A stretch of DNA of 64,000 nt from Phascolarctobacterium succinatutens CAG:287 (GCF_000434895.1 NZ_FR892810.1:1144-65143); one strand, 5' to 3'; counted from the stretch's first letter, positions 5,557 through 27,694 are shown. Program-made: numbers and translations. Notes: generated from the letters alone by a model not told the origin.

Positions 5557-5740
5557 ATATATTCATCCTCTCATGTGCATAAAACATCTGCCAAATATAG
5601 ATTTATAGCACTTTTAAGGATGGTTGTCAATAGGGTTTTAATATGAGAAGTGCCGCAGAAATAATAAAAACATATCTATTAATGCTTTTATTATAAAAAG
5701 CATTAACGATTCGTTCTTTTGTGCTTAATATATTTCAATG

Positions 5741-6694: not shown

Positions 6695-6746
6695 TTCCTC
6701 CTAAAAACCAAACGCAGCAAATCGTCGTTGATAGTAATCATAAAAA

Positions 6747-12283: not shown

Positions 12284-12611
12284 CTCAATTTCTCCTAGAT
12301 TAACTCTAAACCCAATTATATGAAAGCTTGTGCCGTTAACAAAAAGAATATCAATAGTGATTTTTGCGTCAAACCTATTGTTCCGAAAAGTAGCGGGTAC
12401 TACATATCAATCTTATTTTAGCGCAATCGAAGCTATTAGTAAATCCTGCTACAAATTTTTTAAAGACATGATATACTTCGCGCATTCTTAAAGTTCTTAC
12501 GAATAAATATAATAAAAACGAGAAATGCCACAAAAATTACATAAGCGTCTAATAAAGTCTCCACTTACAAAGCATACAAATTAATATTACATATCTAAGC
12601 AAAAAACAAAA

Positions 12612-12662
12612 CCTCCTATTCCAGAATGTTAATATACCGAAATATACATTCTAAAAAGGAGG
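12612..12662 (-). terminator. Rho-independent terminator/attenuator downstream of small peptide gene 1
   Basis: Inverted repeat cctcctattccagaatgt...acattctaaaaaggagg, which on the minus strand is followed by a T-run (ttttgtttttt). Lies between the peptide gene and the ATP-grasp gene. Confidence 0.45.
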
Positions 12663-12821
12663 CTGAGACAGTATATCTTCCGAAAATTATATCACTAAAT
12701 TACTCAACATTAAACCATCTGAGGTGTTATCTTTAACTGGAAGCTCAAAAAAAGGTACTATTATTCTTAAGATTCACCTGAAAGTTAACGATTAGATCCA
12801 CTCAATTCCAATAACAATAAA

Positions 12822-13019
12822 TTATTGATTGAATCTTATTGAATTATTGTTTACAGACAGTAAAGCTTTACTGTGAATATCTCTAAGCATTAAACCAGAA
12901 GCAGTGCCCACAGAAAATGCTGATGCTGCACTAAGTCCGGCAACAGCGCCTACGACAGCGGGAATAGCACCCTCACTAGGATATAAATTATTAATTAATG
13001 GTTTACTATATTTTTTCAT
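12822..13019 (-). CDS. small Gly/Ala-rich peptide (candidate RiPP/bacteriocin precursor 1)
   Basis: 65 aa: MKKYSKPLINNLYPSEGAIPAVVGAVAGLSAASAFSVGTASGLMLRDIHSKALLSVNNNSIRFNQ. Its ATG overlaps the PqqD-like stop (ATGA). Paralogous to the peptide at 13310..13474, with a shared MKK[YS][SY]xKP N-terminus and an A[IF]P..VGAxxAG core. Confidence 0.5.
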   Translation of the reverse strand: MKKYSKPLINNLYPSEGAIPAVVGAVAGLSAASAFSVGTASGLMLRDIHSKALLSVNNNSIRFNQ

Positions 13020-13306
13020 TTTTTATCCTCCAATCTGATAATATTTTTCCATTGTAAATCCCTAATCAGATTTACTATGTCTTGTTCTAAACTATTTTCG
13101 TCAATTACGTAATCCTTAAGAAACATTTCTTTTATTTCTTCGATTTTTCTTTTTCCATCGCATAATTCCAGAAAATTTTTAGCCGTTTCATTTAAATAAA
13201 AAATATCTAAACCGTCTGATTCTGCTATTAAAAAATCTTCATTTTCCCTAGTCTTTAAGGCTATAACTCTAGGAATCTTATCTTTAAAAAAATCGTACAC
13301 CACCAC
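13016..13306 (-). CDS. PqqD-family protein (RiPP recognition element, peptide chaperone)
   Basis: LNETAKNFLELCDGKRKIEEIKEMFLKDY matches the PqqD/RRE signature (LNxTaxxIWeLcDGkrTveEI). About 95 aa. Probable GTG start, 3 nt after the peptide-2 stop. Confidence 0.7.
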   Translation of the reverse strand: MVVYDFFKDKIPRVIALKTRENEDFLIAESDGLDIFYLNETAKNFLELCDGKRKIEEIKEMFLKDYVIDENSLEQDIVNLIRDLQWKNIIRLEDKK

Positions 13307-13309
13307 AAT

Positions 13310-13474
13310 TCACCTACCTAAATTTTTCAGTTTTATTACAGGGCTCGCTTTCATAGCATGAGCTACTGCTCTTCCAATTACGTAACCACCAGCTAAAGCT
13401 GCACCTACCATCGGAAACGCACTTTTCCCCATATCAAAGCACATAGCCACTGGTTTTATATAACTTTTCTTCAT
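13310..13474 (-). CDS. small Gly/Ala-rich peptide (candidate precursor 2), absent from the ORF track
   Basis: Manual translation from the ATG at 13474 (RBS TAAGGAG 6 nt upstream) gives 54 aa: MKKSYIKPVAMCFDMGKSAFPMVGAALAGGYVIGRAVAHAMKASPVIKLKNLGR, stop at 13310-13312. Paralogous to peptide 1. Confidence 0.5.
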   Translation of the reverse strand: MKKSYIKPVAMCFDMGKSAFPMVGAALAGGYVIGRAVAHAMKASPVIKLKNLGR

Positions 13475-13560
13475 AGCAAACAACTCCTTATAATATCTTT
13501 TATTTTTACCGATTTTCTCGGTCTTTTGTAGTTTTTTATATTTTAAGTCAGCTTTTTGTT

Positions 13561-14601
13561 TTAGACTAAAATATCTTTATCAACATGATTTTGAATATTG
13601 CCCTTTTGAGTCTCCTCGTTTATTGAGGCAATAAATTTTTGAACTCTTTCACTCTTCCATGCATTAATTCCGTGCTTCATCCATAACTCTTTTAGTGAAG
13701 TATTTAACACATTGCCAATAATGAACGGAGCCATGCAATCTAATCGGAATTCCCCATTAGGTCTAATGATACCGCCAGCATTATTCTCTAAGCTATACCT
13801 TTTCATTTGATGCCCCAAATCAGCACTTCTTCTAATTTCTATTTTCTCGTTATACTTATTTTGAAGCTTACTAATAACTTCATACAAGCAATTTTTTTGT
13901 TCTTTCGTTAAAATAATATCTTCATTAGTAATAGCTCTTCCACTAGGCAAAACCTCACCTAAAATAATTCTGCTTGCCCCCATGCTATAAGCTAAATCTA
14001 CCATATCCTCAACTTTTCCTAGATTTTTAGGAGTTACCGTATGAGCAATTACAAGAGGTATACCAGCTTGAGAAATTTCCAAAGCACCATTTACCGCTCG
14101 TTCAAAGCTGCCTCTCACCCCCCTGAACTCGTCATGAATTTCTGCTGTTGAACCGTCAATAGATACTTGAAACCAATAATATCTATACTTACTAAAGCGT
14201 TTTACTTTTTCTTTAGTCAGCAGGTAACCGTTTGTAATAACTACAAAAGAAGTCCCATCATCATGCAAAATATCCATTATGTCAAATAGGCGATCACCTA
14301 ATAATAATGGCTCTCCGCCAGAAAGAATACATTGAAAAATACCGCCATCTTTAACTATCTCTTTAGCCAAACTGCACCATTTATCTGGTGTCATTAACGT
14401 CTCCCTATCAGCATCACCAGATCTATTATAACAATGCTTGCACGCAAGATTGCATCGTCCTGTTAATTCAAATTGTAACGTAATCGGATATGTAAATTTT
14501 TCAGGATATAAGCCTTGTTTTCTTAAATTAGTAATATTTTCTTCAATAGCCTTTAGATATTGATTATCTAACGCTCTGTTTATTTTTATATAATCTTTCA
14601 T
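13561..14601 (-). CDS. radical SAM enzyme (peptide-maturase-like, PqqE/anSME-type N-terminal domain; incomplete SPASM cysteine set)
   Basis: Canonical CNLACKHCY (CX3CX2C) at residues about 50-58, SAM-binding ILSGGEPLL, and the glycine-rich barrel motifs. The C-terminal region has only two Cys (RLDCMAPF), so no full SPASM. Start overlaps the upstream gene (ATGA). Confidence 0.85.
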   Translation of the reverse strand: MKDYIKINRALDNQYLKAIEENITNLRKQGLYPEKFTYPITLQFELTGRCNLACKHCYNRSGDADRETLMTPDKWCSLAKEIVKDGGIFQCILSGGEPLLLGDRLFDIMDILHDDGTSFVVITNGYLLTKEKVKRFSKYRYYWFQVSIDGSTAEIHDEFRGVRGSFERAVNGALEISQAGIPLVIAHTVTPKNLGKVEDMVDLAYSMGASRIILGEVLPSGRAITNEDIILTKEQKNCLYEVISKLQNKYNEKIEIRRSADLGHQMKRYSLENNAGGIIRPNGEFRLDCMAPFIIGNVLNTSLKELWMKHGINAWKSERVQKFIASINEETQKGNIQNHVDKDILV

Positions 14602-14870
14602 TCTTTTTCTCCTTTTATTATTTTACAAAAAAAGTAAATAATACGATGAAATTCACGAACACTCATATACGGAAAATACTTTTCGTAAACATACTTACCA
14701 TTGCAAGCATTCGGCCGGATAGAATAAATTGAACATCTGTTATCCACATTCAAGAATTTGCAAATACCATCGCCTCTATCAAATCCTAATAATTGCAGTA
14801 TTCTATTCACATGTTTACAACATTCCCCACAGCAATCGCATGGAAACGGATAATACTTTTGCACAATCAT
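14598..14870 (-). CDS. YkgJ-family cysteine-cluster protein (putative Zn/Fe-chelating domain, PF03692-like)
   Basis: FPCDCCGECC = CxCCxxCC motif, plus further Cys (C..C, CNGK), characteristic of the YkgJ / flagellin N-methylase-like cysteine cluster. 90 aa. Confidence 0.55.
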   Translation of the reverse strand: MIVQKYYPFPCDCCGECCKHVNRILQLLGFDRGDGICKFLNVDNRCSIYSIRPNACNGKYVYEKYFPYMSVREFHRIIYFFCKIIKGEKE

Positions 14871-14954: not shown

Positions 14955-15185
14955 TTATCCATTCTCCACCCCATCCATCAGCTCGCTCATCGTAATACCT
15001 AGTTTCTCGGCAATCTTCATTAAGGTTGAAAGTGATACGCTTTTTGTATAACCGCCATTTTCAATACGCGATAAATATTGCGGCGTAATGCCAACTTCTT
15101 CTGCAAGCTTCTCTTGTGTCATGCTCTTCAATTTTCTATAAAAAACTATCTTGGCACCTATTTTCTTATATCGCGACGCAAACAT
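14955..15185 (-). CDS. XRE-family helix-turn-helix transcriptional regulator (type a)
   Basis: LKSMTQEKLAEEVGITPQYLSRIENGGYTKSVSLSTLMKIAEKLGITMSEL is a classic Cro/C1-type HTH. Sits immediately upstream of, and co-directional with, the YkgJ/rSAM/peptide operon. Confidence 0.8.
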   Translation of the reverse strand: MFASRYKKIGAKIVFYRKLKSMTQEKLAEEVGITPQYLSRIENGGYTKSVSLSTLMKIAEKLGITMSELMDGVENG

Positions 15186-15342
15186 TTAGCTCTCACTCCT
15201 CTTACCACTATATTATCGCACATTCTCAATTTCTTATCTTTGCACAATTGTTTCATAACTTTACATATAGTTTAATTTTTTTTGCGCCTTGCTTTTTGGA
15301 GCTCGCCAATGTACTTACATCATTATTTATTTCTGCTGCTTC

Positions 15343-15585
15343 TTACTTTCTCTCCTGCATAAGCCGCACCGGGTCAACCCCCAAAGCCTGCGCCAGCAAA
15401 AATATAGACTCCATATTAAAGGGTCCCTTGCCGCATTCGATGTCTGAAACGCGCGCTCTTGACATTTTGGCCTTCTCCGCCAGCTCGCTCTGCGTCAGGC
15501 TCAATGCCCTACGATAATACATTATATTCAAGCCAATAGTTTTATATTTTTCTTCAAACAAAAAGTACCACTCCTTATCTCTCAC
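15343..15585 (-). CDS. XRE-family helix-turn-helix transcriptional regulator (type b, copy 1)
   Basis: LSLTQSELAEKAKMSRARVSDIECGKGPFNMESIFLLAQALGVDP. About 96% identical to the protein at 21719..21937. Confidence 0.8.
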   Translation of the reverse strand: MRDKEWYFLFEEKYKTIGLNIMYYRRALSLTQSELAEKAKMSRARVSDIECGKGPFNMESIFLLAQALGVDPVRLMQERK

Positions 15586-15758
15586 CTTATATTATGCACT
15601 AAAAAGGTAGCTCGTGCGGTGCTTTAAATTTTATATATGTGGAATATATTTGACATGAATGCTGTAAACTTCCTTACTTACCGCCTGCTTTTAGTATAAA
15701 TTGAAATGAGAAACAATAATACCACTATAAAATTTCTTCTTTGTGATATTTGAATAAG

Positions 15759-15811
15759 AAAAAAGCTCCCGGATTTCTCCGAGAGCCGATTGCCATAGTT
15801 GGCGGAGTGGG
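15759..15811. repeat. direct repeat: copy of the tRNA-Ser(GCU) 3' end plus terminator hairpin (att-like, distal copy)
   Basis: aaaaaagctcccggatttctccgagagccgattgccatagttggcggagtggg matches 26704..26756 at 49 of 53 positions. All four mismatches fall in the hairpin arms as two compensatory pairs, preserving the stem. Confidence 0.7.
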
Positions 15812-15864
15812 TTAAGGTCTTCTAACCCAACAACAAAGTAATGCTTACTTAATCCTATCAATTT

Positions 15865-16926
15865 TTATTTCAGCAGTGCTACTTTGGAATCTCCAACGCC
15901 GCTATTCAGCTGTGCTGTTTTTGAATTTGCAACGGCCTTACTCAGCAGGGCAACCTTTTTATCTATTTCCTTTTGGACACGCTCTTTGTAATCCTTTAAG
16001 GCCGCATCAATGGTATCGATAACCTGGGAATCGTAATCCACATAATTAATGGCGTCCTTCAAATCTCCTATATATTCTTCGCAAGCCTTATTTACATCTT
16101 TATAGCAATATTTCTCTTCATATTTATCATTACCGAAGAAGCTAGTGCCTGCATATACTTCTGTATCATCTGTATCCATATAATCCCTATAATCACTACG
16201 GGAAGTATAATTGCAGCCATTAAACTCTCTCATTACATCACTGCAGCCGCGCTCTTCAAACTCTTTAAGCCTTACATTGAGCATATACACAAGCACAGAA
16301 TCCTTCTCATTAGCACTGCCGCCCGGGAAAACCGCAAATTCTTTAAAGTCTGCCGGCAGCTTAATTCCGCCTGCAGCTGCCGCTCCGGCAAATTCCTGCA
16401 GCACATCTGCATACTGCTTGTTAATCTGCCCCCAGAAGCCGCTTTCATCAAAAGTATAAAATCTTCTCAGCTTGTCTTCCTTATATTGCACAAAAACCTC
16501 AAGAATGAATTTCTTATACTGCGAATAGCAGATACGATCAAATTCACTTTCCGCAGCACTCATAGCTCTGCTTTCGCTGGAATAATCATAACGATATTCT
16601 CCCTGCGGATAGGAGCAGGTCATACGGTAATCCTGTGCGTGCATCTCAACATCTTTTCGGGTAACATTCGGAACGGTAATCTTTGCTAAAGCGTTTTGCA
16701 GTTTTTCCGGCAGCTTGCTTAAGTCTGCGCCTTCGCCTTCCGCTATGCTTAAAGCTTGTACAGGGCAACCGGCAACAATTTCTTCAGCCTTGGCTAAAAA
16801 ATCATCACTAAAATAGCCACCATTTACAGGAACAGCCTTGCCTTCAGCATCTTCCTGCAAAAGTTTTGTTTCTAATAAGCAGTTGCCACAAGCAATGCAT
16901 TTTTCACTAACTACAAATTTTTTCAT
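15865..16926 (-). CDS. hypothetical protein with N-terminal single-cluster 4Fe-4S ferredoxin-like domain
   Basis: N-terminus CIACGNCLLET...AGCPVQAL resembles single [4Fe-4S] ferredoxin domains. The remaining roughly 290 aa have no recognisable motif. First gene downstream in a three-gene operon. Confidence 0.5.
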   Translation of the reverse strand: MKKFVVSEKCIACGNCLLETKLLQEDAEGKAVPVNGGYFSDDFLAKAEEIVAGCPVQALSIAEGEGADLSKLPEKLQNALAKITVPNVTRKDVEMHAQDYRMTCSYPQGEYRYDYSSESRAMSAAESEFDRICYSQYKKFILEVFVQYKEDKLRRFYTFDESGFWGQINKQYADVLQEFAGAAAAGGIKLPADFKEFAVFPGGSANEKDSVLVYMLNVRLKEFEERGCSDVMREFNGCNYTSRSDYRDYMDTDDTEVYAGTSFFGNDKYEEKYCYKDVNKACEEYIGDLKDAINYVDYDSQVIDTIDAALKDYKERVQKEIDKKVALLSKAVANSKTAQLNSGVGDSKVALLK

Positions 16927-16942
16927 CTTGATTCCTCCAAAT

Positions 16943-17770
16943 CTACAAATTTTTTATATCCTGCATACACTGACTGCCAATTGCCAACGCTTCCGTTGTT
17001 TCTTGCGTAACCTTTCCTTCGTCCGTAAGTACAGGAGCATCAATTATTTTTTTCAGTGTAACCGCCAGATTTATGCAGCTGCAAAAGGCCTTGCGATCGT
17101 TTTCTGTATAAGCAGCTTTGTCCCTGCCCTTAGCAGCAATCAGTTCATCTGAATAGCTGATAGCTTGCATAAACAGCCTGTTTAACCTTGGCAGTAAATC
17201 AGACACCTTATTGCAGGAAGCTATCACGCCGTCTAAAACAGCAGCTAAATTTTCAGCCTGGCTGTAGACAACACGTGAACTGCGCAGCTGCGCGCCAGCC
17301 ATTTGCAGTTCCCTTTCAGAATCATTGATAAACGCATTGCCTAAGCCAAATACGCCGAAGCCCTTTAAGATGCTGACAGCAATTTCTTTATCAGTCATTG
17401 GTCTTACAGCTGTCTGTGCCACTGCATTGATAATCTGTATCTCTTTAGGGCTAAAGCTTTGCTGGTTTAAAACTGCCAGCATCTTGTCATCACGAAAGTC
17501 AATTTTCATGAGCTTGCCATACACAGTAACAAAATTCTGCATTGAAGTAATCAATATCGAACGCTTACGGTTGGAAAGCTTCTTCATAGCATTATCTGCT
17601 GCCTGCTTCTTTACTTCCACCAGCCTGTGAGCTTCTTGCTCCATCGCAAAAGCTTTAGCATAACGCTTTCTCGTCCTGCTATCTATCTGCATTGATTTTT
17701 CTGCGCCATAAAGGCCGCTGCCCAAAACTGCCCCAAGTACCAGTCCGATCATATCATCTGCCCCCTTCAT
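16943..17770 (-). CDS. hypothetical protein (N-terminal glycine-zipper hydrophobic segment)
   Basis: MIGLVLGAVLGSGLYGAE hydrophobic GxxxG segment followed by a predicted helical region. Start overlaps the upstream gene's stop (17767/17770). Confidence 0.5.
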   Translation of the reverse strand: MKGADDMIGLVLGAVLGSGLYGAEKSMQIDSRTRKRYAKAFAMEQEAHRLVEVKKQAADNAMKKLSNRKRSILITSMQNFVTVYGKLMKIDFRDDKMLAVLNQQSFSPKEIQIINAVAQTAVRPMTDKEIAVSILKGFGVFGLGNAFINDSERELQMAGAQLRSSRVVYSQAENLAAVLDGVIASCNKVSDLLPRLNRLFMQAISYSDELIAAKGRDKAAYTENDRKAFCSCINLAVTLKKIIDAPVLTDEGKVTQETTEALAIGSQCMQDIKNL

Positions 17771-19122
17771 AATGTCAGCACCGCATCTTTATCGTCAAAA
17801 AAACTGTTAAACTCCTCCAGTGACTGAAAAGCACATTTTTGGTTAAACACCGCCAAAATATCATTCAGGCCCTGGGTGATTGCTTTATCATCTACTGCGT
17901 AAACTCCCTGCATAACAAGCTCAAAGCCACCTTCAAAGGCCGCTGTCATATATGCATCTTTTGCTTTATTGTATTCATCAATCCGCTGCTTTTGCTGCGC
18001 CAGACTTTGCAGTGCAGTATTAATAATATGCTTAAATTCCGCCTGACGTTTTTTATCCAGCCTGCGTTCCATCTGATATTTAGTGACCGCCCTGGTTATT
18101 TCCCCCACAACCAGGGAAGTAACCACTGCCGCCACCGGTCCGCCCAAGGCAAACGCCATGTTTGCTGCCAATACACCGGCAGTGCCGCAAACAATTTGCG
18201 CAGAGCATTCTTCGCCGCTGATATTGCCATCTAAATAGTTCGCCACAATGCCACCTATTTCTACAGCCATCGTCAGCTGCATAATCGGCAAATTTTTTCC
18301 TGCTAGCTTGGCGAAATCCTTCGCCCCAGCCTTTTTCGCTACTGCGACAACACCATCCTGTACTACCGAAATACCGGCAGCACTGCCAAAGCTCCTTACA
18401 GTATCCTTGCCGACATTTTTTACAGCCTGCTTAATGTCCTGTTCACCTTTCACCAAGCCCACAAGATTGGTCAAGCCGGAAACAGTTGCAGTTACAAAGG
18501 CTGCTTCCCTGCCGGCAGCAGTTGCCTTCTTGACCGATGGCGCAACTGCACCCAGCTTAGAACTGATAACTTTGCTGTTTTTTATTTCATTAACCGTATT
18601 TTCTATTTTATACTTAGTCGCCTGTGTCCGTATATGAGCCTCTGCCTTCACTTCTTCTTTCAGCATATTAACGCTCGTCACAGCATCCGGGCAGTCAACA
18701 GCTTTTTTATTTGTCTTGAAGATTTTCTTGCCAAATAAAGTCTCTGATACATCATTAATCTGCGCAGCGCCTGCTTCAGTATATTTTTTTGCTATATACT
18801 CGTGGTTATTCAGCGCACCCTTGGACTTGTTCAGCGAGGCATTGGTATTAGCAAGGTTTGCATCAGCATTAGCCATTGTTCTTATCTGCTCCGGCGTCAA
18901 ATCAGAACCATAACGCCTGATTTGCTCATCTAACGGAACAATGTGGTCAACGTTTGATTGCTTTTCATTAATATGCTTATTAGCATTATAAAAAATTCTC
19001 TTACCCGTATATTCGTCAGTTATACTTTTTTTATTGCCAAAGGATCTGTTTTTATAGCTGTCAGCCGCATTATTGCGTCTGTTAATATCATCTACCTGAC
19101 TACGCTTTATCTTATCACTCAT
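17767..19122 (-). CDS. HNH (beta-beta-alpha-Me) nuclease-motif protein with Gly/Ala-rich hydrophobic central region
   Basis: N-terminal SNVDHIVPLDEQIRRYGSDL...NASLNKSKGALNNHEY resembles the Cys-free HNH motif (compare Cas9 HNH DVDHIVPQS...DNKVLTRSDKNRGKSD). Central region GIVANYLDG...GTAGVLAANMAFALGGPVAAVVTSLVVG is glycine-zipper-like. Confidence 0.5.
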   Translation of the reverse strand: MSDKIKRSQVDDINRRNNAADSYKNRSFGNKKSITDEYTGKRIFYNANKHINEKQSNVDHIVPLDEQIRRYGSDLTPEQIRTMANADANLANTNASLNKSKGALNNHEYIAKKYTEAGAAQINDVSETLFGKKIFKTNKKAVDCPDAVTSVNMLKEEVKAEAHIRTQATKYKIENTVNEIKNSKVISSKLGAVAPSVKKATAAGREAAFVTATVSGLTNLVGLVKGEQDIKQAVKNVGKDTVRSFGSAAGISVVQDGVVAVAKKAGAKDFAKLAGKNLPIMQLTMAVEIGGIVANYLDGNISGEECSAQIVCGTAGVLAANMAFALGGPVAAVVTSLVVGEITRAVTKYQMERRLDKKRQAEFKHIINTALQSLAQQKQRIDEYNKAKDAYMTAAFEGGFELVMQGVYAVDDKAITQGLNDILAVFNQKCAFQSLEEFNSFFDDKDAVLTL

Positions 19123-19159
19123 ACGCCGCCTCCAAAATTTATTGAGAAGTATCTTCTAC

Positions 19160-19390
19160 TCCTTCCATTAGCTCACTCATCGTAATCCCTAGCTTCCTGG
19201 CAACCTATTCCTGTATCAAACTCTTCAATTGCCTGCAAGTAAGGCATCTTAGTGCCTATTTTCTTATATCTCTGTGCAAATAATTAGCATTAGCTCCCTT
19301 TCCCACTATATTATCGCACATTATCAATTTCATATCTTTGCACAATTTTTCACAATTTTACATATAGTTTAATTTCTTGCGCTTTACCTA
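19160..19390 (-). pseudogene. remnant of type-a XRE regulator gene plus its conserved downstream noncoding segment
   Basis: 19160-19270 aligns to the 5' and 3' parts of the 14955..15185 gene with about 80 nt missing internally. 19290-19390 (ctatattatcgcacattatcaatttcatatctttgcacaatttttcacaattttacatatagtttaattt) matches 15205-15290. Confidence 0.5.
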
Positions 19391-19573
19391 TTAAGCTTTG
19401 CAAGGTGCTTACGTAATTTATATTTCCGCCATGATTTTGATAATAAGTTATGGTGCATTTTTTTCAAACTCACGTCAAATCACCCATTTGCCATATGAGC
19501 ATGAATATATTTAAAGTTCAACATATTAAATAAATTTTTAGCAGGACTGCAAAACGCAGCCCTGCCTGTTACC

Positions 19574-20992
19574 TTATAGCTGTAAATAATCAATCAATAC
19601 CAAACCGGCGTTATACCCGGCCAGCGAAGCAGTTGTCCTATCCATAGGATGCCACGAACCATCATCAGCCTGATATTGAACAAGATATCCTTTACCAGTA
19701 AGCAGACCTACAATACATTGCTGTCGACTTTGCTGCCCAGTGCTACCTATTACAATCATGTCATATTGCACAATTGTTTGACCATTATTGCGCGACAAAA
19801 TTTTTGCACTGCGACAATCAACATAACGATGTGCTCCTTGTCGTTGGAATACTTCCGGTATATATTTATCGCCATTCAAAAACGCTTGCGGATGAAATAA
19901 ATTATACTTCGGTCCACTGCTATTCACATTACTATTCACATTGCTATTTGCATTGCTATTGCTGTATGTAGTTGCTTTACTATTGTTCTCTTCCTGCTGC
20001 ATGTTTAAAATGCCTTCCACATTATATTTATAGGCACCTGTATTGATGAGCAGCTTGCCTTTACCATTATCTAATTCCAACTGAGTCCAGTGTAAATTAA
20101 AGTCCTTGTATTTACTTTCTAAGAAATATTGGCACTCTACTGTCAAAACTTGCTTAGAATTCAATTTGAAGCCTTTTAAATCATTACGATCGCCAAAAGT
20201 AATAACATTAAATTTTTTAGGCGTTAGCAAGTCATTGCCAATTCTCAGGTTAACAGAAAGCTTATCAAGGTCTATTGTTTCATTTTTGCTCATATTAGTA
20301 AAAGCTATCGTTACACTATAAACCCAATCATCAATCTTGCGTCGTTCAAGCACGGCAAAGCCTAGCTTGGTATCGCCAATTTCTTGAACTCGATACGAAG
20401 CGCCACTGCAATCTAAATAAGCGGCTCCCTTATGAAATTCGCCATCATTAGCCATGCCATACCAGTTTAAATCGTGCTGCAAAACAGCATTTTGGAATTC
20501 TACCTTTTCAAAGGCTTCCATTTCCATTGGTCCATTATTGCCAGAATATTGTTCCATATTAGAGCAGACTCTTTTAAGATAAACATTATAAGCCTGCAGA
20601 TAATCCTTCACGCTTTTAGCGTAATTAGCTATTTGGTAGCGTTTGATGGCTTTCTCCCCATCCTTTTTAGAAGGACCATTATCCTTGCTGTCCATCATTT
20701 TCTTGCTGAAATCCATAAAGCTCTCATTGGCCTTCGCTTCATCATATTTTTCATCACTCAGCTTGGCGATATTCTTGTCATTTTCTTCAATTAAATTCTT
20801 AATCTGCTTGAGCATTTTCTGCTTATCAATATTGCGATTTTCCAGCATGGCCTGAGCCTGCTCTGTTTCCATCTCAGCAACCTTCGTACTGTTGTTAAGA
20901 TACATGGAATGTATTTTTTGCTCTTCTGACTTACCACAACCGGTAAGCACCACTGTTAAGATAAGCATTGCATAAAAAAACAGCTTTTTCAC
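19574..20992 (-). CDS. hypothetical lipoprotein with N-terminal coiled-coil region and N/S-rich repeat
   Basis: Signal peptide with lipobox (VLTGCGK). KATTYSNSNANSNVNSNVNSSGPKY is encoded by a 12-nt tandem repeat at about 19916-19965. Confidence 0.6.
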   Translation of the reverse strand: MKKLFFYAMLILTVVLTGCGKSEEQKIHSMYLNNSTKVAEMETEQAQAMLENRNIDKQKMLKQIKNLIEENDKNIAKLSDEKYDEAKANESFMDFSKKMMDSKDNGPSKKDGEKAIKRYQIANYAKSVKDYLQAYNVYLKRVCSNMEQYSGNNGPMEMEAFEKVEFQNAVLQHDLNWYGMANDGEFHKGAAYLDCSGASYRVQEIGDTKLGFAVLERRKIDDWVYSVTIAFTNMSKNETIDLDKLSVNLRIGNDLLTPKKFNVITFGDRNDLKGFKLNSKQVLTVECQYFLESKYKDFNLHWTQLELDNGKGKLLINTGAYKYNVEGILNMQQEENNSKATTYSNSNANSNVNSNVNSSGPKYNLFHPQAFLNGDKYIPEVFQRQGAHRYVDCRSAKILSRNNGQTIVQYDMIVIGSTGQQSRQQCIVGLLTGKGYLVQYQADDGSWHPMDRTTASLAGYNAGLVLIDYLQL

Positions 20993-21044
20993 ACTATGAC
21001 CTCCCTATATAACTTTTCCAGTTAAATGTTTTATAAAAAAAGTA

Positions 21045-21677
21045 CTATTGCAAAGGATCTGCTCCGTAGCGATTATCACCTACCGTACCAGGCGCAAACA
21101 GTAAATACAACTCAAAAAAGCCATTGAGAAGTGGCACAAAGGTTAATAATACTAATAAGCCATCTTTATCCAAATCGTGCAAGCGACGAACCGATATAGC
21201 ACTATTTATCCAAACCAATAGAGTAAAAGCTATTAAGCCAATGAAGCAAGCCAGATAATCAATTGCTTCCATATAGTAATCATCTACAAACTCGTCGATG
21301 ATGCAGGCGATAATAAAAAACACCAAACAACTACTCATGCTCTTGAGGAAATAATCCAATCTATTGATGCGTCCCTCAAAGCTCAAAAACTGCTCTTTAA
21401 AAATCTCTTTATTCAAAGCAGGTTTACGTTCGGGATTATTGCCAAAAAGTCTGCTAAAGATTTCTTTAAAATCCTTGGGATTATCATTGCTATGAGCTTT
21501 TCCCAACTGAAAACCACATTTTGTGCAAAATTTGACACCAATAGGATAAGTTGTACCGCACTTAGGGCAAATTACATTTGTCGGCTCAATCTTTGGTAAC
21601 TGATCTGTCCCGCATACCGGACAAAACCTTCCCTGGTCGTCAATTTCGGCTCCACACTTAATACAATACTTTGACAT
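21045..21677 (-). CDS. DUF805-family inner-membrane protein with N-terminal zinc-ribbon repeats
   Basis: Three CxxC...CxxC zinc-ribbon units (CIKCGAE..CPVCG; CPKCGT..CTKCG) followed by the DUF805 signature (GRINRLDYF ... RRLHDLDKDG ... GDNRYGADP). Confidence 0.7.
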   Translation of the reverse strand: MSKYCIKCGAEIDDQGRFCPVCGTDQLPKIEPTNVICPKCGTTYPIGVKFCTKCGFQLGKAHSNDNPKDFKEIFSRLFGNNPERKPALNKEIFKEQFLSFEGRINRLDYFLKSMSSCLVFFIIACIIDEFVDDYYMEAIDYLACFIGLIAFTLLVWINSAISVRRLHDLDKDGLLVLLTFVPLLNGFFELYLLFAPGTVGDNRYGADPLQ

Positions 21678-21718
21678 AATATCTGCCTCCCTCTAATATT
21701 TTTTATTGCCGCTGCTTC

Positions 21719-21937
21719 TTACTTTCTCTCCTGCAGAAGCCGCACCGGGTCAACCCCCAGGGCCTGCGCCAGCAAAAATATAGACTCCATATTAAACGGT
21801 CCCTTACCGCATTCTATATCCGAGACGCGCGCCCTTGACATTTGGGCTTTCTCCGCCAGCTCGCTCTGCGTCAGACTCAATGACCTGCGATAATACATAA
21901 TATTTAAGCCAATAGTTTTATATTTTTCTTCAAACAA
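21719..21937 (-). CDS. XRE-family helix-turn-helix transcriptional regulator (type b, copy 2)
   Basis: 72 aa, about 96% identical to 15343..15585. The roughly 190 bp on its high-coordinate side are also conserved with 15586-15758. Confidence 0.8.
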   Translation of the reverse strand: MFEEKYKTIGLNIMYYRRSLSLTQSELAEKAQMSRARVSDIECGKGPFNMESIFLLAQALGVDPVRLLQERK

Positions 21938-22208
21938 AAAGCATCACTTCTTATCTCTTCCCTTCTATTATGCACTAAAAAGATGGCTCTTGCGGTGCTT
22001 TAGATTTTATATATATGGAATATATTTGACATAAAATCCGCAAGCTTACTTGACCACCGCCTGCTTTTAGTATAAGATGAAGTCAGAAACAATAACACCA
22101 TGATAAAATTTCTTTTTTGTGATATTATAATGACGAAAAAGCAGATGCCGACAAAACATCAGCATCTGCTAGCAACATAAGATTTTAGATTTTTGCGAGG
22201 TTATACCT

Positions 22209-23375
22209 ATGACGACAATGCAACGCGCCTTTCCGGCGCCAGTGATTCCCAAATTCTTCACCAATAATATCTGCGGCAATTATCAAATTCGCCGCTTTTT
22301 TAACGGTCAGGACGACTTTATCTGCGCCCAAGGCCCCTTTCATACGCAAACTATCGCTTCACAAAGTGAGGAAGGTGCGGCAGCTTCTTCCCTGGCTATA
22401 GCCTTCGCCAATATTGACGAAAACGATAAAAAGCAGGTGCTTGCCTTCTGCAATGCCTACGGCCTGCCCTATTCTTCGCAGCGCTGCCTTGAGAAACGTG
22501 CACATCTTGATGACGAAAATCATTCTGTAATCATCAACGATTTCAGTTTTATCGACACTACCCTTTTTATGGGAGATATCCTTGCAGAAAAAGACTATGC
22601 TGCCAATGATGCCGAGGTTACCTTGAATTACACCCTGTTCGAAGTAGACGAAATGGACATTATGAGCCTGCGCCTTTTTGCCCGCTGCGTCAAAATCGTC
22701 CGCAGCCTGCTTATTGTCCAAAGCTATCTCTTCCGACACGAAGGGACACAGGCAGGCGTTATCTATGCACTTGCCTACCTGCTGCATTACAGCGCACGTT
22801 GCATTCACTACCTGCTGCCGCACATCAAAACACCTACGCTCAAGGCAGCAGAATACTTTGCTACGCACAAGCGTATTTCGCACACGCAGCTGCTCAAAAA
22901 TATCCGCAAAACAGATGCAGACTACGCCTGCCAGCTGCAAGACTTTCTCGCAGTCGTAGACAAGCATATGCTGCACACACTTGCTGATTATGACAAGGAC
23001 CTGCTGACGAAGAAACAGCTTACTGCCATGATTCTCGCTGAAGATATTCCAAGCATAAGCCTTGACAACGCTTTTGCCAGACGCATCCTGCTCGATATCA
23101 TCAACGATAATATCTATACCGCCAGACCGCAAATGGACCTGGCGCAAGAAAAATTTACCAGCCTTTGGCAATGCAGTTATCTTATGCAGGCAGTTTATCT
23201 TGATTTGTATCAGCTGCTGCTCAATCCGGGCGAATACCACCGCTGCGCCAATCCTGAATGCAGCAATTATTTTCTCATCAGCGGACGCCGTGCAGACAAA
23301 CGCTACTGCTGCAATCGCTGTGCTTCCAAAATGGGTAAGCAAGGCAAAACATATAGACCGCATAAGGAAAAATGA
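22209..23375 (+). CDS. CGNR zinc-finger domain protein
   Basis: C-terminal CANPECSNYFLISGRRADKRYCCNRCASKM matches the zf-CGNR motif. Higher GC than the surrounding genes. A palindrome and T-run terminator follow at 23457-23505. Confidence 0.65.
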   Translation: MTTMQRAFPAPVIPKFFTNNICGNYQIRRFFNGQDDFICAQGPFHTQTIASQSEEGAAASSLAIAFANIDENDKKQVLAFCNAYGLPYSSQRCLEKRAHLDDENHSVIINDFSFIDTTLFMGDILAEKDYAANDAEVTLNYTLFEVDEMDIMSLRLFARCVKIVRSLLIVQSYLFRHEGTQAGVIYALAYLLHYSARCIHYLLPHIKTPTLKAAEYFATHKRISHTQLLKNIRKTDADYACQLQDFLAVVDKHMLHTLADYDKDLLTKKQLTAMILAEDIPSISLDNAFARRILLDIINDNIYTARPQMDLAQEKFTSLWQCSYLMQAVYLDLYQLLLNPGEYHRCANPECSNYFLISGRRADKRYCCNRCASKMGKQGKTYRPHKEK

Positions 23376-23620
23376 GAAACAAATTTAAGCAACAAAAAAA
23401 TATCCGCAACTGTGCGGAGGAAATCGTCTTGATTGGACTTGTATATACTTAATCAAATGCCCGTTATCTGCTATGTTGGCTGATAACAGGCATTAGCTTT
23501 TTGATTGAGCGAACAGTCACCTAGGTGCGCCTAATAATGTATGCCCAATAGTCGCTTCTCTTCTGTCTGCCCTAAATTATCTTAGTCACTAATAGGAAGT
23601 TCTGTTTTACAGTGTCACGC

Positions 23621-25117
23621 TTACTTCTTTTGTTCTGTAAACTTATACTTGCCTTTACCTTGCCCGATGACCGCTTCAATCACTCCTGCTTCTTTTAGTT
23701 TATTTATGAGATTACCGGCAGCAGTAATAGAGATGTTTACAATGCCTATTATATCATTACGTCCAAATACACCATCGAAGCTCATGTAGGCAAACAGTTT
23801 TTTTGCGTTTTCCTTAGTATTCTTGTTTGCGTTCAAACTGTCAATCGCAGCTTCAATTAAAAGGTTTTCAGAAGCAATTAACACCTTTTCTCCGTCAACT
23901 GCAACTTTTTTCGGGTCAATTAACACCTTTTCAATTGGAACTTTGTAATTCAGATTGTAGAGCGTAGCAAAAAATGATTTGGGTGTCGATCTGAAAATTG
24001 GCTCGACTTCGGGACGATAATTAACCGCATGACGATAATCTGCCTTGATCTTCTTGAAACCGCTGCCACGACGATCCATAAAGTGCATACGGCTGAAAAT
24101 ATCAGCAATCACTGGATTACGGCGTTTGGATGCTACATTGTCCATATCAAGCTCTTGTACGATAGAGCCATCAAACATACCGCCTGGGGAATATACTTCC
24201 ATGCGGTTATCGAAAATATCAATGTGTACCTCGCTGCCGATCTCCATATAGTCACGATGAATCAGCGCATTGACAATTACCTCATGTACTGCCTGTTCGG
24301 GGTATTCGGGCATCTCCACTCGTCCATTGCCAACCTTTTTCCACCTTTTCTTGGTATTGTTCTTAACGAACTCGGTGCCGTTCTGCAACAAAGATACCAA
24401 TGAACCGCTGTATTCCTTATCGTCAAGTGCTTCAATAATACCTGAGGCTTTGTTCAAGCCATACCAACGGGTACAGAACAGGCGAGAGTGCCGCATCGGA
24501 GATTCATCCGCCAACAACATGCCTGCGTTGGTTAGCATATTGTTTTCGTCAACAAGCTCAAAGGAAATAAAATCGGAATCCGTTAACTCTGTACCTGTTC
24601 TCATACGATAAACAGAGCGCAGCTTTGTAAAGGCAAGCGATTCAAATGAATAACGCGTAGAAAGACTGTCAAAAGACGTATTGCTTCCACGCAAAACAAG
24701 CCGCTTCAAATCTACAGCACTTGCAGGGACACTCTCATTGCCGATGCGAACATAAGCTATCCTGTTACCATCGCCTGTATAGTAATAAGGAGTTTCCTGC
24801 CCTGACGGAACTCGCAATAAAACGAACTCTTTGCCGTCCTCTGCGTGGATGTTCAAAATCACTTGTGGGGCAGGATCCATTTTAGTTTTGATAGCTTCGC
24901 TAATCTTTTCAGATACGCCCTTTGCATCATCTAACCCGACAAGAACTTCATCGTTGGACACACCGAAAAACAATGCTCCACCAATCCCATTGGCAAATGC
25001 GCTTACGCTTTTTAACCAACTTTTAGGCTTGCGTTCTTCAAGCATTTCTTTCTTATCATATTCCGTAGCTTCACCTATGAAATCAGATAATTTCATATTG
25101 TTAATACCTCGTTTCAT
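23621..25117 (-). CDS. Schlafen/AlbA_2-domain plus HATPase-like plus HTH putative transcriptional regulator (so-called RecG-like DNA-binding protein)
   Basis: N-terminal AlbA_2-like region (ESWLKSVSAFANGIGGALFFGV) and a central ATPase-like region (VHEVIVNALIHRDY, an HATPase_c_4-like Bergerat motif) with C-terminal HTH. This architecture is often annotated as an ATP-dependent DNA helicase RecG-related regulator on mobile elements. Confidence 0.65.
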   Translation of the reverse strand: MKRGINNMKLSDFIGEATEYDKKEMLEERKPKSWLKSVSAFANGIGGALFFGVSNDEVLVGLDDAKGVSEKISEAIKTKMDPAPQVILNIHAEDGKEFVLLRVPSGQETPYYYTGDGNRIAYVRIGNESVPASAVDLKRLVLRGSNTSFDSLSTRYSFESLAFTKLRSVYRMRTGTELTDSDFISFELVDENNMLTNAGMLLADESPMRHSRLFCTRWYGLNKASGIIEALDDKEYSGSLVSLLQNGTEFVKNNTKKRWKKVGNGRVEMPEYPEQAVHEVIVNALIHRDYMEIGSEVHIDIFDNRMEVYSPGGMFDGSIVQELDMDNVASKRRNPVIADIFSRMHFMDRRGSGFKKIKADYRHAVNYRPEVEPIFRSTPKSFFATLYNLNYKVPIEKVLIDPKKVAVDGEKVLIASENLLIEAAIDSLNANKNTKENAKKLFAYMSFDGVFGRNDIIGIVNISITAAGNLINKLKEAGVIEAVIGQGKGKYKFTEQKK

Positions 25118-25203
25118 TTCCTATCGTTTCAGAGAGTGCGCCCGAAGCACACGCTATCGGTTTTACATTTCTGCGTTTAGCTTCTCTTTTCTCAATCTTA
25201 CCC

Positions 25204-26361
25204 TTAGCCATTTAGCAATTCTCCATGAATAAACGGTATTGCGCCATAGCGGCCTAAAAGATAACCTTTTTCAACCTTAGCATCTTTGCGTATTGAAAAA
25301 TCATAAAGAGAAAATAAATCCGTAGCTGCTGTCAAATTATCTTTTTCTGTAAACCATATCTGATCTCTACGAAGAATATCTAAATCAAGCAGATTAGTAT
25401 TATGAGAAGTAAAAATAAGCTGTGCGCCATTAGGATTAGTATCGCTATTATTGAACAGCATTACGAGATGTTTGGTTAGCAGCGGATGCAGATGAGCATC
25501 TATTTCATCAGCCACTAGCAATGTCCCCTGCTCCAAAGCTTTCTTAATAACCCCTATAAGCTTAAAATAGCTGTTTGTCCCATCAGACTCCTCAGCCATA
25601 TTAAGCACATACGTATTCGTTTCGCCAACATCATCTTGAACTGTATGCACCGTTTCTACATTAAGATAACTTATTGCTCCTTTAGACAGTTTCAACAACG
25701 GATCTATATCTCTAACCTGTAATGATTGAATACCAAAATCAGCTACCTTCAGCATAGAAGCTATCGCACTGCGATAATCACTATCCTTGAGCTGCTCTGC
25801 ATTAACACCATACGCATCTGCTACTGAATTTTTAGTAATAATCTGGCACGAAGCAAACCACTCCAAAACAGGTATTACTTTGCTATAGCTCCAATTTGAA
25901 GCAACAGAAAGATATAACTTATTAGCTGATGTACGCTCTTTAAGCACCGTCTGCTCCTCTATATCGCTCGTAAAACGATACTCAGAGCAGTTGTTCCGCT
26001 CAAATATAAGTGCTTGCCTGCCGTTAGGATAATAATATAAGTATTCTTCTACTACTTCCTTATCCGTAACAGCAAAACCATAGGTATATCTTATACCTTG
26101 AGTAATAAAGACAACCTCAAATCTAGTAGGCTGGCTTGGGGTGAGCTTGTCAAATTTAAAAGGAACACGCTCAATGCTCTTATGTAGCTGTTTTTCATGC
26201 GAAGTCAGAACGTAATTAACCATAAACCAAAATGCATTAAGGACACTTGACTTGCCAGACGCATTAGCTCCATAAATAACAGAGGATTTTAGATACCGTT
26301 TGCCTCTATCCTCAATCAAAGCTTCTTCATGCTCATTATCCTTGCTTGCCAGCATAGACAA
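25204..26361 (-). CDS. AAA_21/ABC-type ATPase (defense-island-type ATP-binding protein)
   Basis: Walker A (GANASGKSSVLNAF) near the N-terminus and Walker B / D-loop (LLVADEIDAHLHP) about 290 aa later. This split ABC-ATPase layout is typical of the AAA_21/AAA_15 proteins found in abortive-infection and OLD-like systems. Confidence 0.7.
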   Translation of the reverse strand: MSMLASKDNEHEEALIEDRGKRYLKSSVIYGANASGKSSVLNAFWFMVNYVLTSHEKQLHKSIERVPFKFDKLTPSQPTRFEVVFITQGIRYTYGFAVTDKEVVEEYLYYYPNGRQALIFERNNCSEYRFTSDIEEQTVLKERTSANKLYLSVASNWSYSKVIPVLEWFASCQIITKNSVADAYGVNAEQLKDSDYRSAIASMLKVADFGIQSLQVRDIDPLLKLSKGAISYLNVETVHTVQDDVGETNTYVLNMAEESDGTNSYFKLIGVIKKALEQGTLLVADEIDAHLHPLLTKHLVMLFNNSDTNPNGAQLIFTSHNTNLLDLDILRRDQIWFTEKDNLTAATDLFSLYDFSIRKDAKVEKGYLLGRYGAIPFIHGELLNG

Positions 26362-26703
26362 GACAATTTCTTTTTTATGGACAGATAATTCTCCACGCTA
26401 AACTGAATAAGCACAATTCTCACCTTCAAAACACTTTATACTATAATTATAGAGCTATTTTTGTGAGATTTCAACGAAAACAGTATATAAATCTAAAGTT
26501 TTTCCTTTATTGTCCTGATTAATACATCACTTATTTATTAATCAAACTATTTACAGTGATCAGTAGTATATATATGATTACCTCTCAGACTAAAAACAGT
26601 ATTTCCGTTTTTATTTTCTACTCACTTCGATTAGATACTATATTCGGGAAATTATCAACGGATTTTTCGTTTTTATTTTCTACTATCTCTTATTCTGGCA
26701 AAC

Positions 26704-26756
26704 AAAAAAGCTCTCAGATTTCTCTGAGAGCCGATTGCCATAGTTGGCGGAGTGGG
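26704..26756. repeat. direct repeat (proximal copy): terminator hairpin plus last 12 nt of tRNA-Ser(GCU)
   Basis: aaaaaagctctcagatttctctgagagccgattgccatagttggcggagtggg. The hairpin gctctcaga/tctgagagc plus A-run forms a terminator for the minus-strand tRNA. Pairs with 15759..15811. Confidence 0.7.
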
Positions 26757-26836
26757 TGGGATTCGAACCCACGCACGGGGTAAACCGTCTAACGATTTAG
26801 CAAACCGTCCTCTTCAGCCAGCTTGAGTACCACTCC
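26745..26836 (-). tRNA. tRNA-Ser (anticodon GCU)
   Basis: Minus-strand sequence GGAGTGGTACTCAAGCTGGCTGAAGAGGACGGTTTGCTAAATCGTTAGACGGTTTACCCCGTGCGTGGGTTCGAATCCCACCCACTCCGCCA. 7-bp acceptor stem, anticodon loop TTGCTAA, long variable arm, GGTTCGAATCC T-loop, encoded CCA. Confidence 0.85.
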
Positions 26837-26883: not shown

Positions 26884-26973
26884 CCCTATTATAATTTTTT
26901 AATGGCGGAAAGGGTGGGATTCGAACCCACGGAAGGCTTGCACCTTCGCTAGTTTTCAAGACTAGAGCCTTCA
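26884..26973 (-). tRNA. tRNA-Ser (anticodon UGA)
   Basis: Minus-strand GGAAAGGTGGCCGAGTGGTTGAAGGCTCTAGTCTTGAAAACTAGCGAAGGTGCAAGCCTTCCGTGGGTTCGAATCCCACCCTTTCCGCCA. Anticodon loop CTTGAAA (TGA), long variable arm, encoded CCA. Confidence 0.85.
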
Positions 26974-27061
26974 ACCACTCGGCCACCTTTCCATCAGAAT
27001 TTTATTATACTTTAAAAACACGCTTACGTCAAGTACTTCTACCGCACCGAGCAATAAAGCC

Positions 27062-27694
27062 TTATTGCAACGCTTTATCCGTTACTGCAAGCAAACGGTT
27101 TTCCAAAGTCTCTGCCTCTGCCAAAAGCTGCTTCAGCTCTGCTGCAGCCTGCGCATTCCACGCTTCATCCTTGGTCAGTCCCAGGTTAATGCGCACATTG
27201 TACTCCGCACAGCGCAGCGCCGCACGCGCCAACAAACCGCTGCAAGCACCGTCAGTAATCACGCCGGGGTTTCCTGCCACTACCAGCCTGTCTGCCAGCT
27301 TCAGGACAGCAAAGGAGCTGCGGGCAATGTTCAGCGGTACGGTTGCCGCCTGCTTTGCTGCAGTGCGGATTGCCGCTGTACGTGCTGCCTTTTCTTCGTC
27401 GGTAGTCTTGGGCAGCTTATAACAGCTCATAAAGCTGTTGAAAACAGCGGCATCATCGTCTGCCAGCTGCAAAAGACGTACACGCTCTGCTTCCGCCTGC
27501 TTCAGCAGCTCTTTGACCTCCGGCTCGTGGTCGGCGAACTTTTCCTTGCCAATTGTCAGATTAGCAACCATGGAAGCAAGTGCTGCCGCCAAAGCGCCGG
27601 CCATAGCAGCGCCGCCGCCACCGCCAGGGGCGGGCGCGGCGCTTGCAAGCTCAGTTAAAAATTCCTTACAGCTTAAATCGCCAAGCTTATTCAT
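27062..27694 (-). CDS. cyclodeaminase/cyclohydrolase family protein (formiminotransferase-cyclodeaminase C-terminal-like)
   Basis: PAPGGGGGAAMAGALAAALASMVANLTIGKEKF is the hallmark motif of the FTCD_C / methenyl-THF cyclohydrolase family. All-helical, about 210 aa. Confidence 0.7.
   Translation of the reverse strand: MNKLGDLSCKEFLTELASAAPAPGGGGGAAMAGALAAALASMVANLTIGKEKFADHEPEVKELLKQAEAERVRLLQLADDDAAVFNSFMSCYKLPKTTDEEKAARTAAIRTAAKQAATVPLNIARSSFAVLKLADRLVVAGNPGVITDGACSGLLARAALRCAEYNVRINLGLTKDEAWNAQAAAELKQLLAEAETLENRLLAVTDKALQ

Follow-up and report, generated by a model that had tools for sequence, protein, structure and literature searches.

The tRNA-Ser(GCU) locus and its direct repeat

In a 64,000-nt stretch of the Phascolarctobacterium succinatutens CAG:287 genome (the whole stretch is referred to as the window), a 53-bp direct repeat was found at 15759-15811 (distal copy) and 26704-26756 (proximal copy). 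A sequence-only reading of this DNA had described the 10.9 kb bounded by the two copies as one element, integrated at the 3' end of a tRNA gene. We characterized the genes and repeats of this region and compared them with those of Phascolarctobacterium (succinatutens group) genomes and metagenome contigs, which were gathered via the protein encoded on the conserved tRNA-side flank, an FTCD_C-domain protein (27062-27694, minus strand). The loci of these relatives are numbered L001-L191.

The proximal copy lies on the minus strand and begins with the final 12 nt of tRNA-Ser(GCU), which are followed by a trailer of 17 nt and by a hairpin with its T-run. The tRNA gene itself (26745-26836, minus strand; ARAGORN; Rfam tRNA, 52 bits) is intact and 100% identical in all relatives, and represents the integration target (attB/attL side). 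The proximal copy is of the attL type, complete since it is the tRNA itself, and is followed by the flank of an AAA_21 cassette, an arrangement shared by L002, L004, L015 and L019. Both copies share an exact 29-mer, GAGCCGATTGCCATAGTTGGCGGAGTGGG, for which 0 matches were expected by chance in shuffled sequence. These data confirmed the position of the repeat as well as its overlap with the tRNA end and the terminator hairpin (ARAGORN; folding). No third copy was detected in the window with the 29-mer at up to 3 mismatches or with a 12-mer at up to 1 mismatch. The two copies differ at 3 of the 53 positions (94.3% identity); the fourth mismatch that had been reported lies just outside the block, at 15758/26703. 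On the minus (transcribed) strand, the changes are an A-U to G-C double change and a U-A to U.G single change. These amount to one compensatory pair plus a G.U wobble, whereas two compensatory pairs had been claimed.

Folding gives both copies the same hairpin, in which 10 bp of stem close a GAAA loop and U6 follows (-21.8 and -22.4 kcal/mol; z = -5.3 and -4.4). The hairpin is located 53 nt past the stop codon of the 353-aa Fer4 gene (Fer4_353, described below) in the distal copy and directly past the tRNA in the proximal copy. With a GC-rich stem-loop and a U-run 3' of a co-oriented gene, both are predicted to be intrinsic (Rho-independent) terminators. In the terminator hairpins (26708-26731 and 15763-15786), the GAAA loop is a GNRA tetraloop. 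An Rfam scan returned two tRNAs only, with no small RNA in the trailer. Among the copies of relatives, hairpin alleles of the types tcagag/ctgaga and tcggag/ccgaga were observed, as well as hybrids including one with an A.C mismatch, which suggests recombination between copies inside the hairpin. The allele of the distal copy, tcggag/ccggga, is also present at empty sites beside the TonB-receptor gene (see below), as would be expected if the distal copy derives from the chromosome.

Every copy follows closely on a gene or operon of its own orientation and folds into a strong terminator hairpin, the stem of which is kept by covariation (at 2 stem pairs, with 97% of cells paired among 30 distinct copies from relatives). 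Together with the recombinant appearance of the hybrid alleles, these features would fit a reading in which no integration took place: the block would be a portable terminator duplicated by homologous or illegitimate recombination, and the region would be swapped by flanking homology after transformation or transduction. The attachment blocks and the integrase-bearing relatives described below make this explanation very unlikely in our view.

Genes between the two repeat copies

We searched 10 open reading frames (ORFs) in 15865-26361 against Pfam, namely eight of at least 200 aa on the gene strand, one 72-aa HTH gene and one 334-aa antisense ORF, and none of them contained a tyrosine or serine recombinase domain. 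When the window was searched by tblastn with three proteins from relatives, the integrase of an integrative and mobilizable element (IME), a prophage integrase and a resolvase, only chance-level matches were obtained. Both results agree with the earlier statement that the enclosed DNA encodes no such recombinase. Moreover, no integrase, relaxase or primase was found in protein scans of the window with Pfam, PADLOC and NCBIfam.

The gene nearest to the tRNA, the first of what we call cassette 1, encodes an AAA_21/AbiLi-like ATPase (25204-26361, minus strand; Pfam AAA_21, E = 9e-43; PADLOC AbiLi, E = 5.6e-89), and is followed by a gene for a Schlafen protein with AlbA_2 and HATPase_c_4 domains (23621-25117, minus strand; Pfam). 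Beyond a junction at 23394-23425 lies the CGNR unit, the first gene of which encodes a 388-aa protein, putatively of the ABATE/CGNR zinc-finger type (22209-23375, plus strand; weak CGNR finger in Pfam). Divergent from it is the gene of an HTH_3 (Cro/C1-type) regulator, HTH_B2 (21719-21937, minus strand; Pfam, E = 4.6e-12). The genes of a DUF805/double-zinc-ribbon protein (21045-21677) and a 472-aa lipoprotein-like protein (19574-20992), together at 19574-21677 on the minus strand (Pfam), form an optional insert between two HTH genes that is present in some relatives and absent from others. The second regulator gene, HTH_A' (19155-19378, minus strand), is a pseudogene broken into 24-aa and 29-aa ORFs, and its counterpart is intact in L141, L044 and L091. 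The unit closes with an operon (15865-19122, minus strand; Pfam, PADLOC) for proteins of 451 aa (weak GmrSD_C/HNH, PDC-M40B), 275 aa and 353 aa (with Fer4_15), which is candidate defence cargo.

Of the cargo named in the sequence-only reading, the AAA_21 ATPase, the Schlafen-type protein and, weakly, the CGNR protein were thus recovered by Pfam, but the HNH motif rests on sub-threshold matches (GmrSD_C, E = 0.002, 18.5 bits against a cut-off of 23; PADLOC PDC-M40B, E = 6e-8). NCBIfam and PADLOC gave no names to most cargo proteins. The 334-aa ORF antisense to the CGNR gene (22359-23363, minus strand) has no family match, and gene callers chose the plus-strand gene in all relatives; this ORF is probably spurious. 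In L001, L003 and L005 (12602-13449), two ORFs of 119 aa and 163 aa take the place of an intact Schlafen gene, and the 451-aa gene is split in L053 (7805-9160), pointing to ongoing pseudogenisation of the cargo.

Empty sites and the extent of the insertion

At three loci (L017, L098 and L126), the tRNA is followed by a single 53-bp block and, within about 160 nt, by the gene of a TonB-dependent receptor. This gene (3694-5556, minus strand in the window) is the conserved right-hand (B') flank of the locus, as determined by comparison with relatives. The empty-site junction corresponds to window position 26700 joined to 5639, and the insertion relative to the empty site therefore measures about 21 kb (5640-26703), reaching up to the TonB-receptor promoter at 5640, rather than 10.9 kb. 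Because the empty-site relatives join the tRNA block directly to the TonB-receptor region, the entire low-GC stretch 5640-26703 is variable DNA, and the 10.9 kb is its tRNA-proximal half. The junction at 5640 carries no att (attachment-site) copy when compared with the empty site of L017.

Empty alleles, which the sequence-only reading had proposed to look for, do exist, but not in the form that it predicted. The allele expected from precise excision of the 10.9 kb, the tRNA block followed by the HTH_B flank (15700-15758), was absent among 201 block copies collected from 180 loci. In another relative, L024 (10939-11728), the DNA after the tRNA block corresponds to window 3650-3000, and the TonB-receptor gene is absent there.

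Comparison with relatives separates the segment into cassettes

By comparison with relatives, the window contains three fused integrase-less cassettes: the AAA_21 and Schlafen genes; the CGNR unit, ending in the Fer4 operon; and, beyond the distal repeat copy, an HTH pair with a cluster resembling those for ribosomally synthesized and post-translationally modified peptides (RiPPs). In L019, L020, L021, L088 and L069, the AAA_21 gene forms a cassette of its own of about 2 kb that ends in an att copy, and in L020, L088 and L069 this cassette also includes a 171-172-aa partner gene, which has no Pfam family. The Schlafen gene of the window sits where relatives have the 172-aa partner gene. The AbiL abortive-infection system pairs the AbiLi ATPase with a small partner (AbiLii), a pairing that the window lacks, since the place of the 171-172-aa partner found in L020, L088 and L069 is taken by the Schlafen gene.

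The complete CGNR unit, found on many contigs, consists of the CGNR gene, HTH_B, optionally the DUF805 and 472-aa genes, HTH_A, the 451/275/353 operon and genes for a 647-695-aa protein and a 418-aa LRAT-domain protein; it ends in another 53-bp block, 14 nt past the LRAT stop codon (e.g. L068 and L093). In L022, the tRNA block is followed directly by sequence matching window 23399 to 15818 at 96% identity, with no AAA_21 or Schlafen gene. In both L022 and L045 there is no repeat after Fer4_353, the 3' untranslated region (UTR) of which runs on into the 647-695-aa gene and the 418-aa LRAT gene. In the window, these last two genes are deleted and the Fer4_353 3' UTR is joined 6 nt left of the block, at a deletion junction termed FerJ (15812-15830, minus strand; comparison with L022 and L045). 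The T-arm-like sequence gggttagaaga left of the distal copy was considered as a tRNA relic and rejected, since L022 and L045 place it in the Fer4_353 3' UTR. The distal copy, instead of being a clean att site, is thus a 5'-truncated att relic fused to the Fer4_353 3' UTR.

The border between the first two cassettes has been altered as well. The att copy between the Schlafen and CGNR genes (psi-tRNA part and 53-bp block) has been lost from the junction at 23394-23425 (minus strand; sequence and blastn map), where only a T-run is left, shared with a different hairpin. The terminator hairpin of the Schlafen gene stands in place of the lost att hairpin, and homology to the CGNR unit starts at the A/T-run; on the blastn map, the homology of L022 and L018 stops at window 23399. 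In relatives, psi-O-h stands immediately before the CGNR gene. The comparison therefore does not support treating the 10.9 kb as a single element that has the two copies for its attL and attR: in relatives the AAA_21 cassette and the CGNR unit are separate, each with its own att copy, and the CGNR unit of L022 abuts the tRNA.

The third cassette is headed by a second HTH_B (15343-15585) and HTH_A (14955-15185) pair at 14955-15585 on the minus strand, recognized by its repetition of the inner pair and by the Pfam families in the gene calls of L048. The HTH_B paralogues form a 300-nt repeat of 90% identity (15322-15621 and 21698-21997), and the HTH_A paralogues (14965-15281 and 19155-19378) are about 82% identical. 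Such paralogues inside and just outside the 10.9 kb imply that an HTH_B/HTH_A pair heads successive cassettes. The cargo of cassette 3 (5640-14870, minus strand; GC 0.30-0.34) is a RiPP-like radical-SAM/PqqD cluster with epimerase, GT2, carbamoyltransferase and ATP-grasp genes. Its gene cluster (5741-14870) includes a radical-SAM/SPASM maturase (13561-14601), PqqD (13016-13306) and small ORFs at 12822-13019 and 13310-13483, as well as a CxxCxxCC protein, the ATP-grasp protein, the carbamoyltransferase, GT2, a variant radical-SAM protein and the epimerase, and from its domain content it looks like a RiPP plus glycosylation pathway. The RiPP cluster is absent from the empty-site relatives, and L049 has helicase/PIN/AAA_5 cargo instead.

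Across the relatives, the cassettes measure between 66 nt and over 10 kb, have the 53-bp block at their borders and are mostly co-oriented. With a hairpin whose structure is conserved while its sequence varies, this arrangement resembles an integron-like system, in which the 53-bp hairpin would be attC-like and an unrecognised recombinase would act on it. The 388-aa CGNR protein would be a candidate for that role, as its gene occupies the position expected for an integrase gene, lies beside an att copy in all relatives and is genus-specific (a homologue search returned a genus-restricted orphan family). However, its fold is that of a regulator and its tblastn match to an integrase is marginal (E = 0.041) and was judged to be chance; the protein is probably a regulator rather than the missing recombinase, and the fold result largely refutes the integron-like reading. 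There is, furthermore, no IntI-type gene, attI or attC R/L boxes at the locus, the hairpin and T-run are fully accounted for as an intrinsic terminator, and a conventional integrase with matching att sites exists (see below). We regard an integron-like system as highly improbable.

A complete attachment block begins in the anticodon loop

The sequences left of the 201 block copies fall into several classes: the true tRNA, a diverged tRNA 3' part (psi), truncated junctions (P3 and FerJ) and about 13 near-perfect tRNA copies. The psi copies start at the anticodon loop (TTGCGAA versus TTGCTAA). The roughly 13 near-perfect copies likewise start there, carrying 52-57 nt of tRNA at 90% identity or more upstream of the block. 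A conserved arm (P arm), cactatatatagtgg...gccacaaattgtag, stands ahead of psi and near-perfect copies alike and follows a variety of cargos. In L069, attR is 100% identical to the tRNA region across 106 nt. The 53-bp block is therefore the 3' half of a 101-106-bp att identity block beginning in the anticodon loop.

Islands integrated at tRNA genes are delimited by a regenerated tRNA and a displaced fragment (PMC4383910). An identity block that starts in the anticodon loop and restores the tRNA 3' part is the classical signature of a tyrosine integrase crossing over in that loop (PMC4383910); here, trailer and terminator are restored too. The distal copy in the window (minus strand) keeps 12 nt of the tRNA and lacks both the 48-57-nt part from the anticodon loop to the T-arm and the P arm; the P-arm motif does not occur anywhere in the window. 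Folding and the complete attR copies of relatives identify this copy as a 5'-truncated attR relic and the predicted terminator of the Fer4 operon.

Tandem units of 119 nt (19 nt, the psi-tRNA part and the 53-bp block) were also found, with up to three after the tRNA (L087, 208-500; L051, 117-290; L018, 10939-11110). The trailer is identical across species whose proteins are 77-78% identical, which we attribute to overwriting by the IME described next.

Integrase-bearing relatives occupy the same tRNA

In L164, L072, L155 and L177-L191, an IME follows the tRNA block directly. It encodes a 536-aa protein, a D5_N/DUF5906 primase, a MobA/VirD2 relaxase, a 396-407-aa tyrosine integrase (Pfam Phage_integrase, E = 2.7e-29) and a resolvase, sometimes RloB/AAA_21, and further two HTH_17 (excisionase-like) proteins, DUF932 and ERF. 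After ERF comes a 373-aa CGNR homologue with a divergent HTH_3 gene, and then variable cargo. This cargo slot behind CGNR/HTH holds an MMR_HSR1/AIG1 GTPase in some strains and a 505-aa AAA+ ATPase in others (L182, 20120-21076; L181, 71-1588; L184, 20390-21191). The interval of the IME from the resolvase to the second relaxase fragment was searched for internal att copies, and none was found.

With 96% identity, the IME backbone can be followed into L069 and L143, where HTH_A, cargo and a complete attR form the end. In the distant Phascolarctobacterium species of L043, a larger integrative element includes CGNR, HTH and, at 52-54% identity, the 451/275/353 trio, beside a 61-nt fragment of tRNA-Ser(GCU) and an integrase. 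From these gene orders it follows that the CGNR/HTH/cargo module is the distal part of an IME family targeting tRNA-Ser(GCU).

These results also bear on the portable-terminator explanation. The 119-nt tandem units would suggest slippage or unequal crossing-over and in that respect agree with it. Against it, the complete copies form a 101-106-bp block from the anticodon loop with a conserved arm, which is a signature of tyrosine integrases (PMC4383910), an integrase-bearing IME is present at the same tRNA, and the identical trailer in species with 77-78% protein identity fits overwriting by a mobile element.

Probably a composite island left by decayed integrative elements

Taken together, our data favour with good confidence the view that integrative elements targeting tRNA-Ser(GCU) in Phascolarctobacterium left this segment behind as a composite, decayed remnant. 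Of the three origins that the sequence-only reading had left open, the decayed island is the best supported, given the absence of a recombinase, the truncated and lost att copies and the HTH_A' pseudogene. Its att signature survives in part: the repeat does descend from site-specific integration at the 3' region of tRNA-Ser(GCU), but its copies are not the clean attL and attR of one unit.

We propose that IMEs insert into the tRNA, bringing their own tRNA 3' part, trailer and terminator, and that each insertion would yield attL and attR with a common 101-106-bp identity block from the anticodon loop. Through repeated integrations, followed by deletions, the space between the tRNA and the TonB-receptor gene would have come to contain an array of cassettes that lack an integrase. 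Integration, decay to a cis-mobilizable element (CIME) and accretion form the three-step route of tRNA-integrated IMEs and integrative and conjugative elements (ICEs) (PMC5704250); the array in the window would have passed beyond the CIME stage, because its att sites are truncated or lost. The 53-bp repeat would then consist of the attL-type copy of the tRNA and a truncated attR copy that lacks the presumed crossover region and the arm sites. The truncated distal copy may now serve mainly as the terminator of the Fer4 operon, and the surviving copies as terminators between co-oriented cassettes. The 10.9 kb would be unable to excise as a unit with the integrase of the family, and would change only by homologous recombination between copies or flanks. 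The 53-bp copies can still mediate such homologous exchange, which we deduce from the hybrid hairpin alleles and from one junction type having several downstream partners: blocks with FerJ or P3 junctions are joined to TonB, HTH_B, CGNR or psi sequences.

Several observations weigh against this interpretation. No single contig carries attL, integrase and attR, the IME being longer than the 10-kb flanks examined, and for that reason the link between them rests on the overlapping, 96%-identical backbones. The crossover would lie at the edge of the identity block, from which its position was taken. Furthermore, the truncated left junctions (psi, P3 and FerJ) end within about 6 nt of one edge of the 53-bp block, a clustering that random deletion does not predict, and the 119-nt tandem psi units are not explained by recombination between att sites.

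Alternatively, the 10.9 kb could be a functional CIME, whose 53-bp copies would suffice as att sites and which an integrase acting in trans, from the IME family or another element, would move as a unit. The perfect 29-nt core of the direct repeats and the circulation of integrase-bearing elements of the same att specificity in the species group are in line with this, as are the different downstream partners of the FerJ and P3 blocks, which show that copies recombine, and the clustered left edges of the truncated copies, which fit a second crossover site. However, two features of all complete attR copies, the stretch from the anticodon loop to the T-arm and the P arm, are missing from the distal copy, the excision product was found in 0 of the 201 copies, and the segment corresponds to two separate units in relatives. 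Since repeats of 53-100 bp are enough for RecA-dependent exchange, partner swapping needs no integrase. We therefore consider a functional CIME unlikely.

A further possibility, rather improbable in our estimation, is that the block is the working exchange site of a genus-wide cassette array, through an unrecognised T-stem/acceptor crossover or the IME integrase acting in trans, with the genus-specific module of CGNR and two HTH genes as a conserved switch over any cargo inserted behind it. If so, strains would exchange defence, regulatory and RiPP cassettes that lack an integrase, and the tRNA-Ser hotspot would be the place of this shuffling.

On the preferred reading of a decayed composite remnant, the segment seems to be an ordinary decayed genomic island of known type, with no new mechanism. 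It offers a worked example, from a little-studied gut Negativicute, of a tRNA hotspot gathering integrase-less defence and biosynthetic cassettes, and illustrates that a clean-looking direct repeat need not bound a mobile unit. The analysis also identified the IME family and the att site of about 106 bp that feed the tRNA-Ser(GCU) hotspot. The empty-site and att coordinates can be used in annotating Phascolarctobacterium genomes, and the CGNR/HTH module can guide the mining of candidate defence cargo behind it.

The neighbouring tRNA gene and related contigs

A second tRNA gene, tRNA-Ser(UGA) (26903-26992, minus strand; ARAGORN, Rfam), lies outside the island and is the target of another prophage in other species. 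In L038 (11006-12115), L040 and L041, a different tyrosine integrase, of a prophage, lies directly 3' of tRNA-Ser(UGA), and in L063, L086 and L113 phage tail-like genes precede tRNA-Ser(GCU), indicating that the twin tRNA locus is a double hotspot. A scan of viral contigs returned only the same chromosomal locus. Three GTDB records (L038, L020 and L026) are filed as 'Escherichia coli', 'Bacteroides sp. CAG:545' and 'Duodenibacillus sp.', respectively, though they carry the Phascolarctobacterium locus; these contigs are likely mis-binned.

Comparison with known systems

Tyrosine integrases of the anticodon-loop type were reportedly described by Williams in 2002. As at the sites of such enzymes, the identity block in the complete copies runs from the anticodon loop through the 3' end of the tRNA. 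The locus is also similar to Islander-type islands (PMC4383910) in having an intact tRNA and a displaced 3' fragment as a direct repeat at the far end. Different from these islands, the identity block extends 41 nt past the tRNA and includes the terminator, the fragment in the window retains 12 nt of the tRNA, and the integrase that lies within such islands is missing from the window.

CIMEs and their tandem accretion at tRNA genes are known from the islands related to ICESt1/ICESt3 in Streptococcus thermophilus and from the tRNA-Lys composites of S. agalactiae (PMC5704250). Like those accretions, the locus has integrase-less remnants in tandem at a tRNA 3' end, with att-derived direct repeats between them and intact relatives at the same site, and the proposed route of integration, decay and accretion is the same. 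A CIME retains attL and attR and no longer carries genes for integration and transfer; such genes are indeed lost from the window, but its distal att is truncated and its internal copy is gone, so the two sites are not retained. Cassettes that qualify as CIME-like, for instance the 2-kb one with AAA_21 and a complete attR, were found in relatives alone. Differences from the reported accretions also lie in the host, here a Negativicute, and in the cargo, which consists of defence, regulatory and RiPP genes.

IMEs are characterized by a tyrosine integrase, a relaxase and a primase (PMC5704250), and precisely this combination is present at the same tRNA in L164 and L177-L191, together with the CGNR/HTH module. 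The window, by contrast, lacks genes for integration, replication and mobilisation, and only the cargo and regulatory end is left.

A survey of chromosomally integrated mobile elements has described defence hotspots located both in mobile elements and in degraded islands that sit at tRNA genes (PMC10201445). Different from the surveyed hotspots, a defence role for the present cargo, most proteins of which have no family assignment, is a candidate function only. Similar to them, the locus holds variable anti-phage-like cargo at a fixed place behind conserved regulators, including the AbiL-like AAA_21 ATPase, the Schlafen/AlbA_2 protein, the PDC-M40-like HNH operon and the helicase/PIN cargo of L049.

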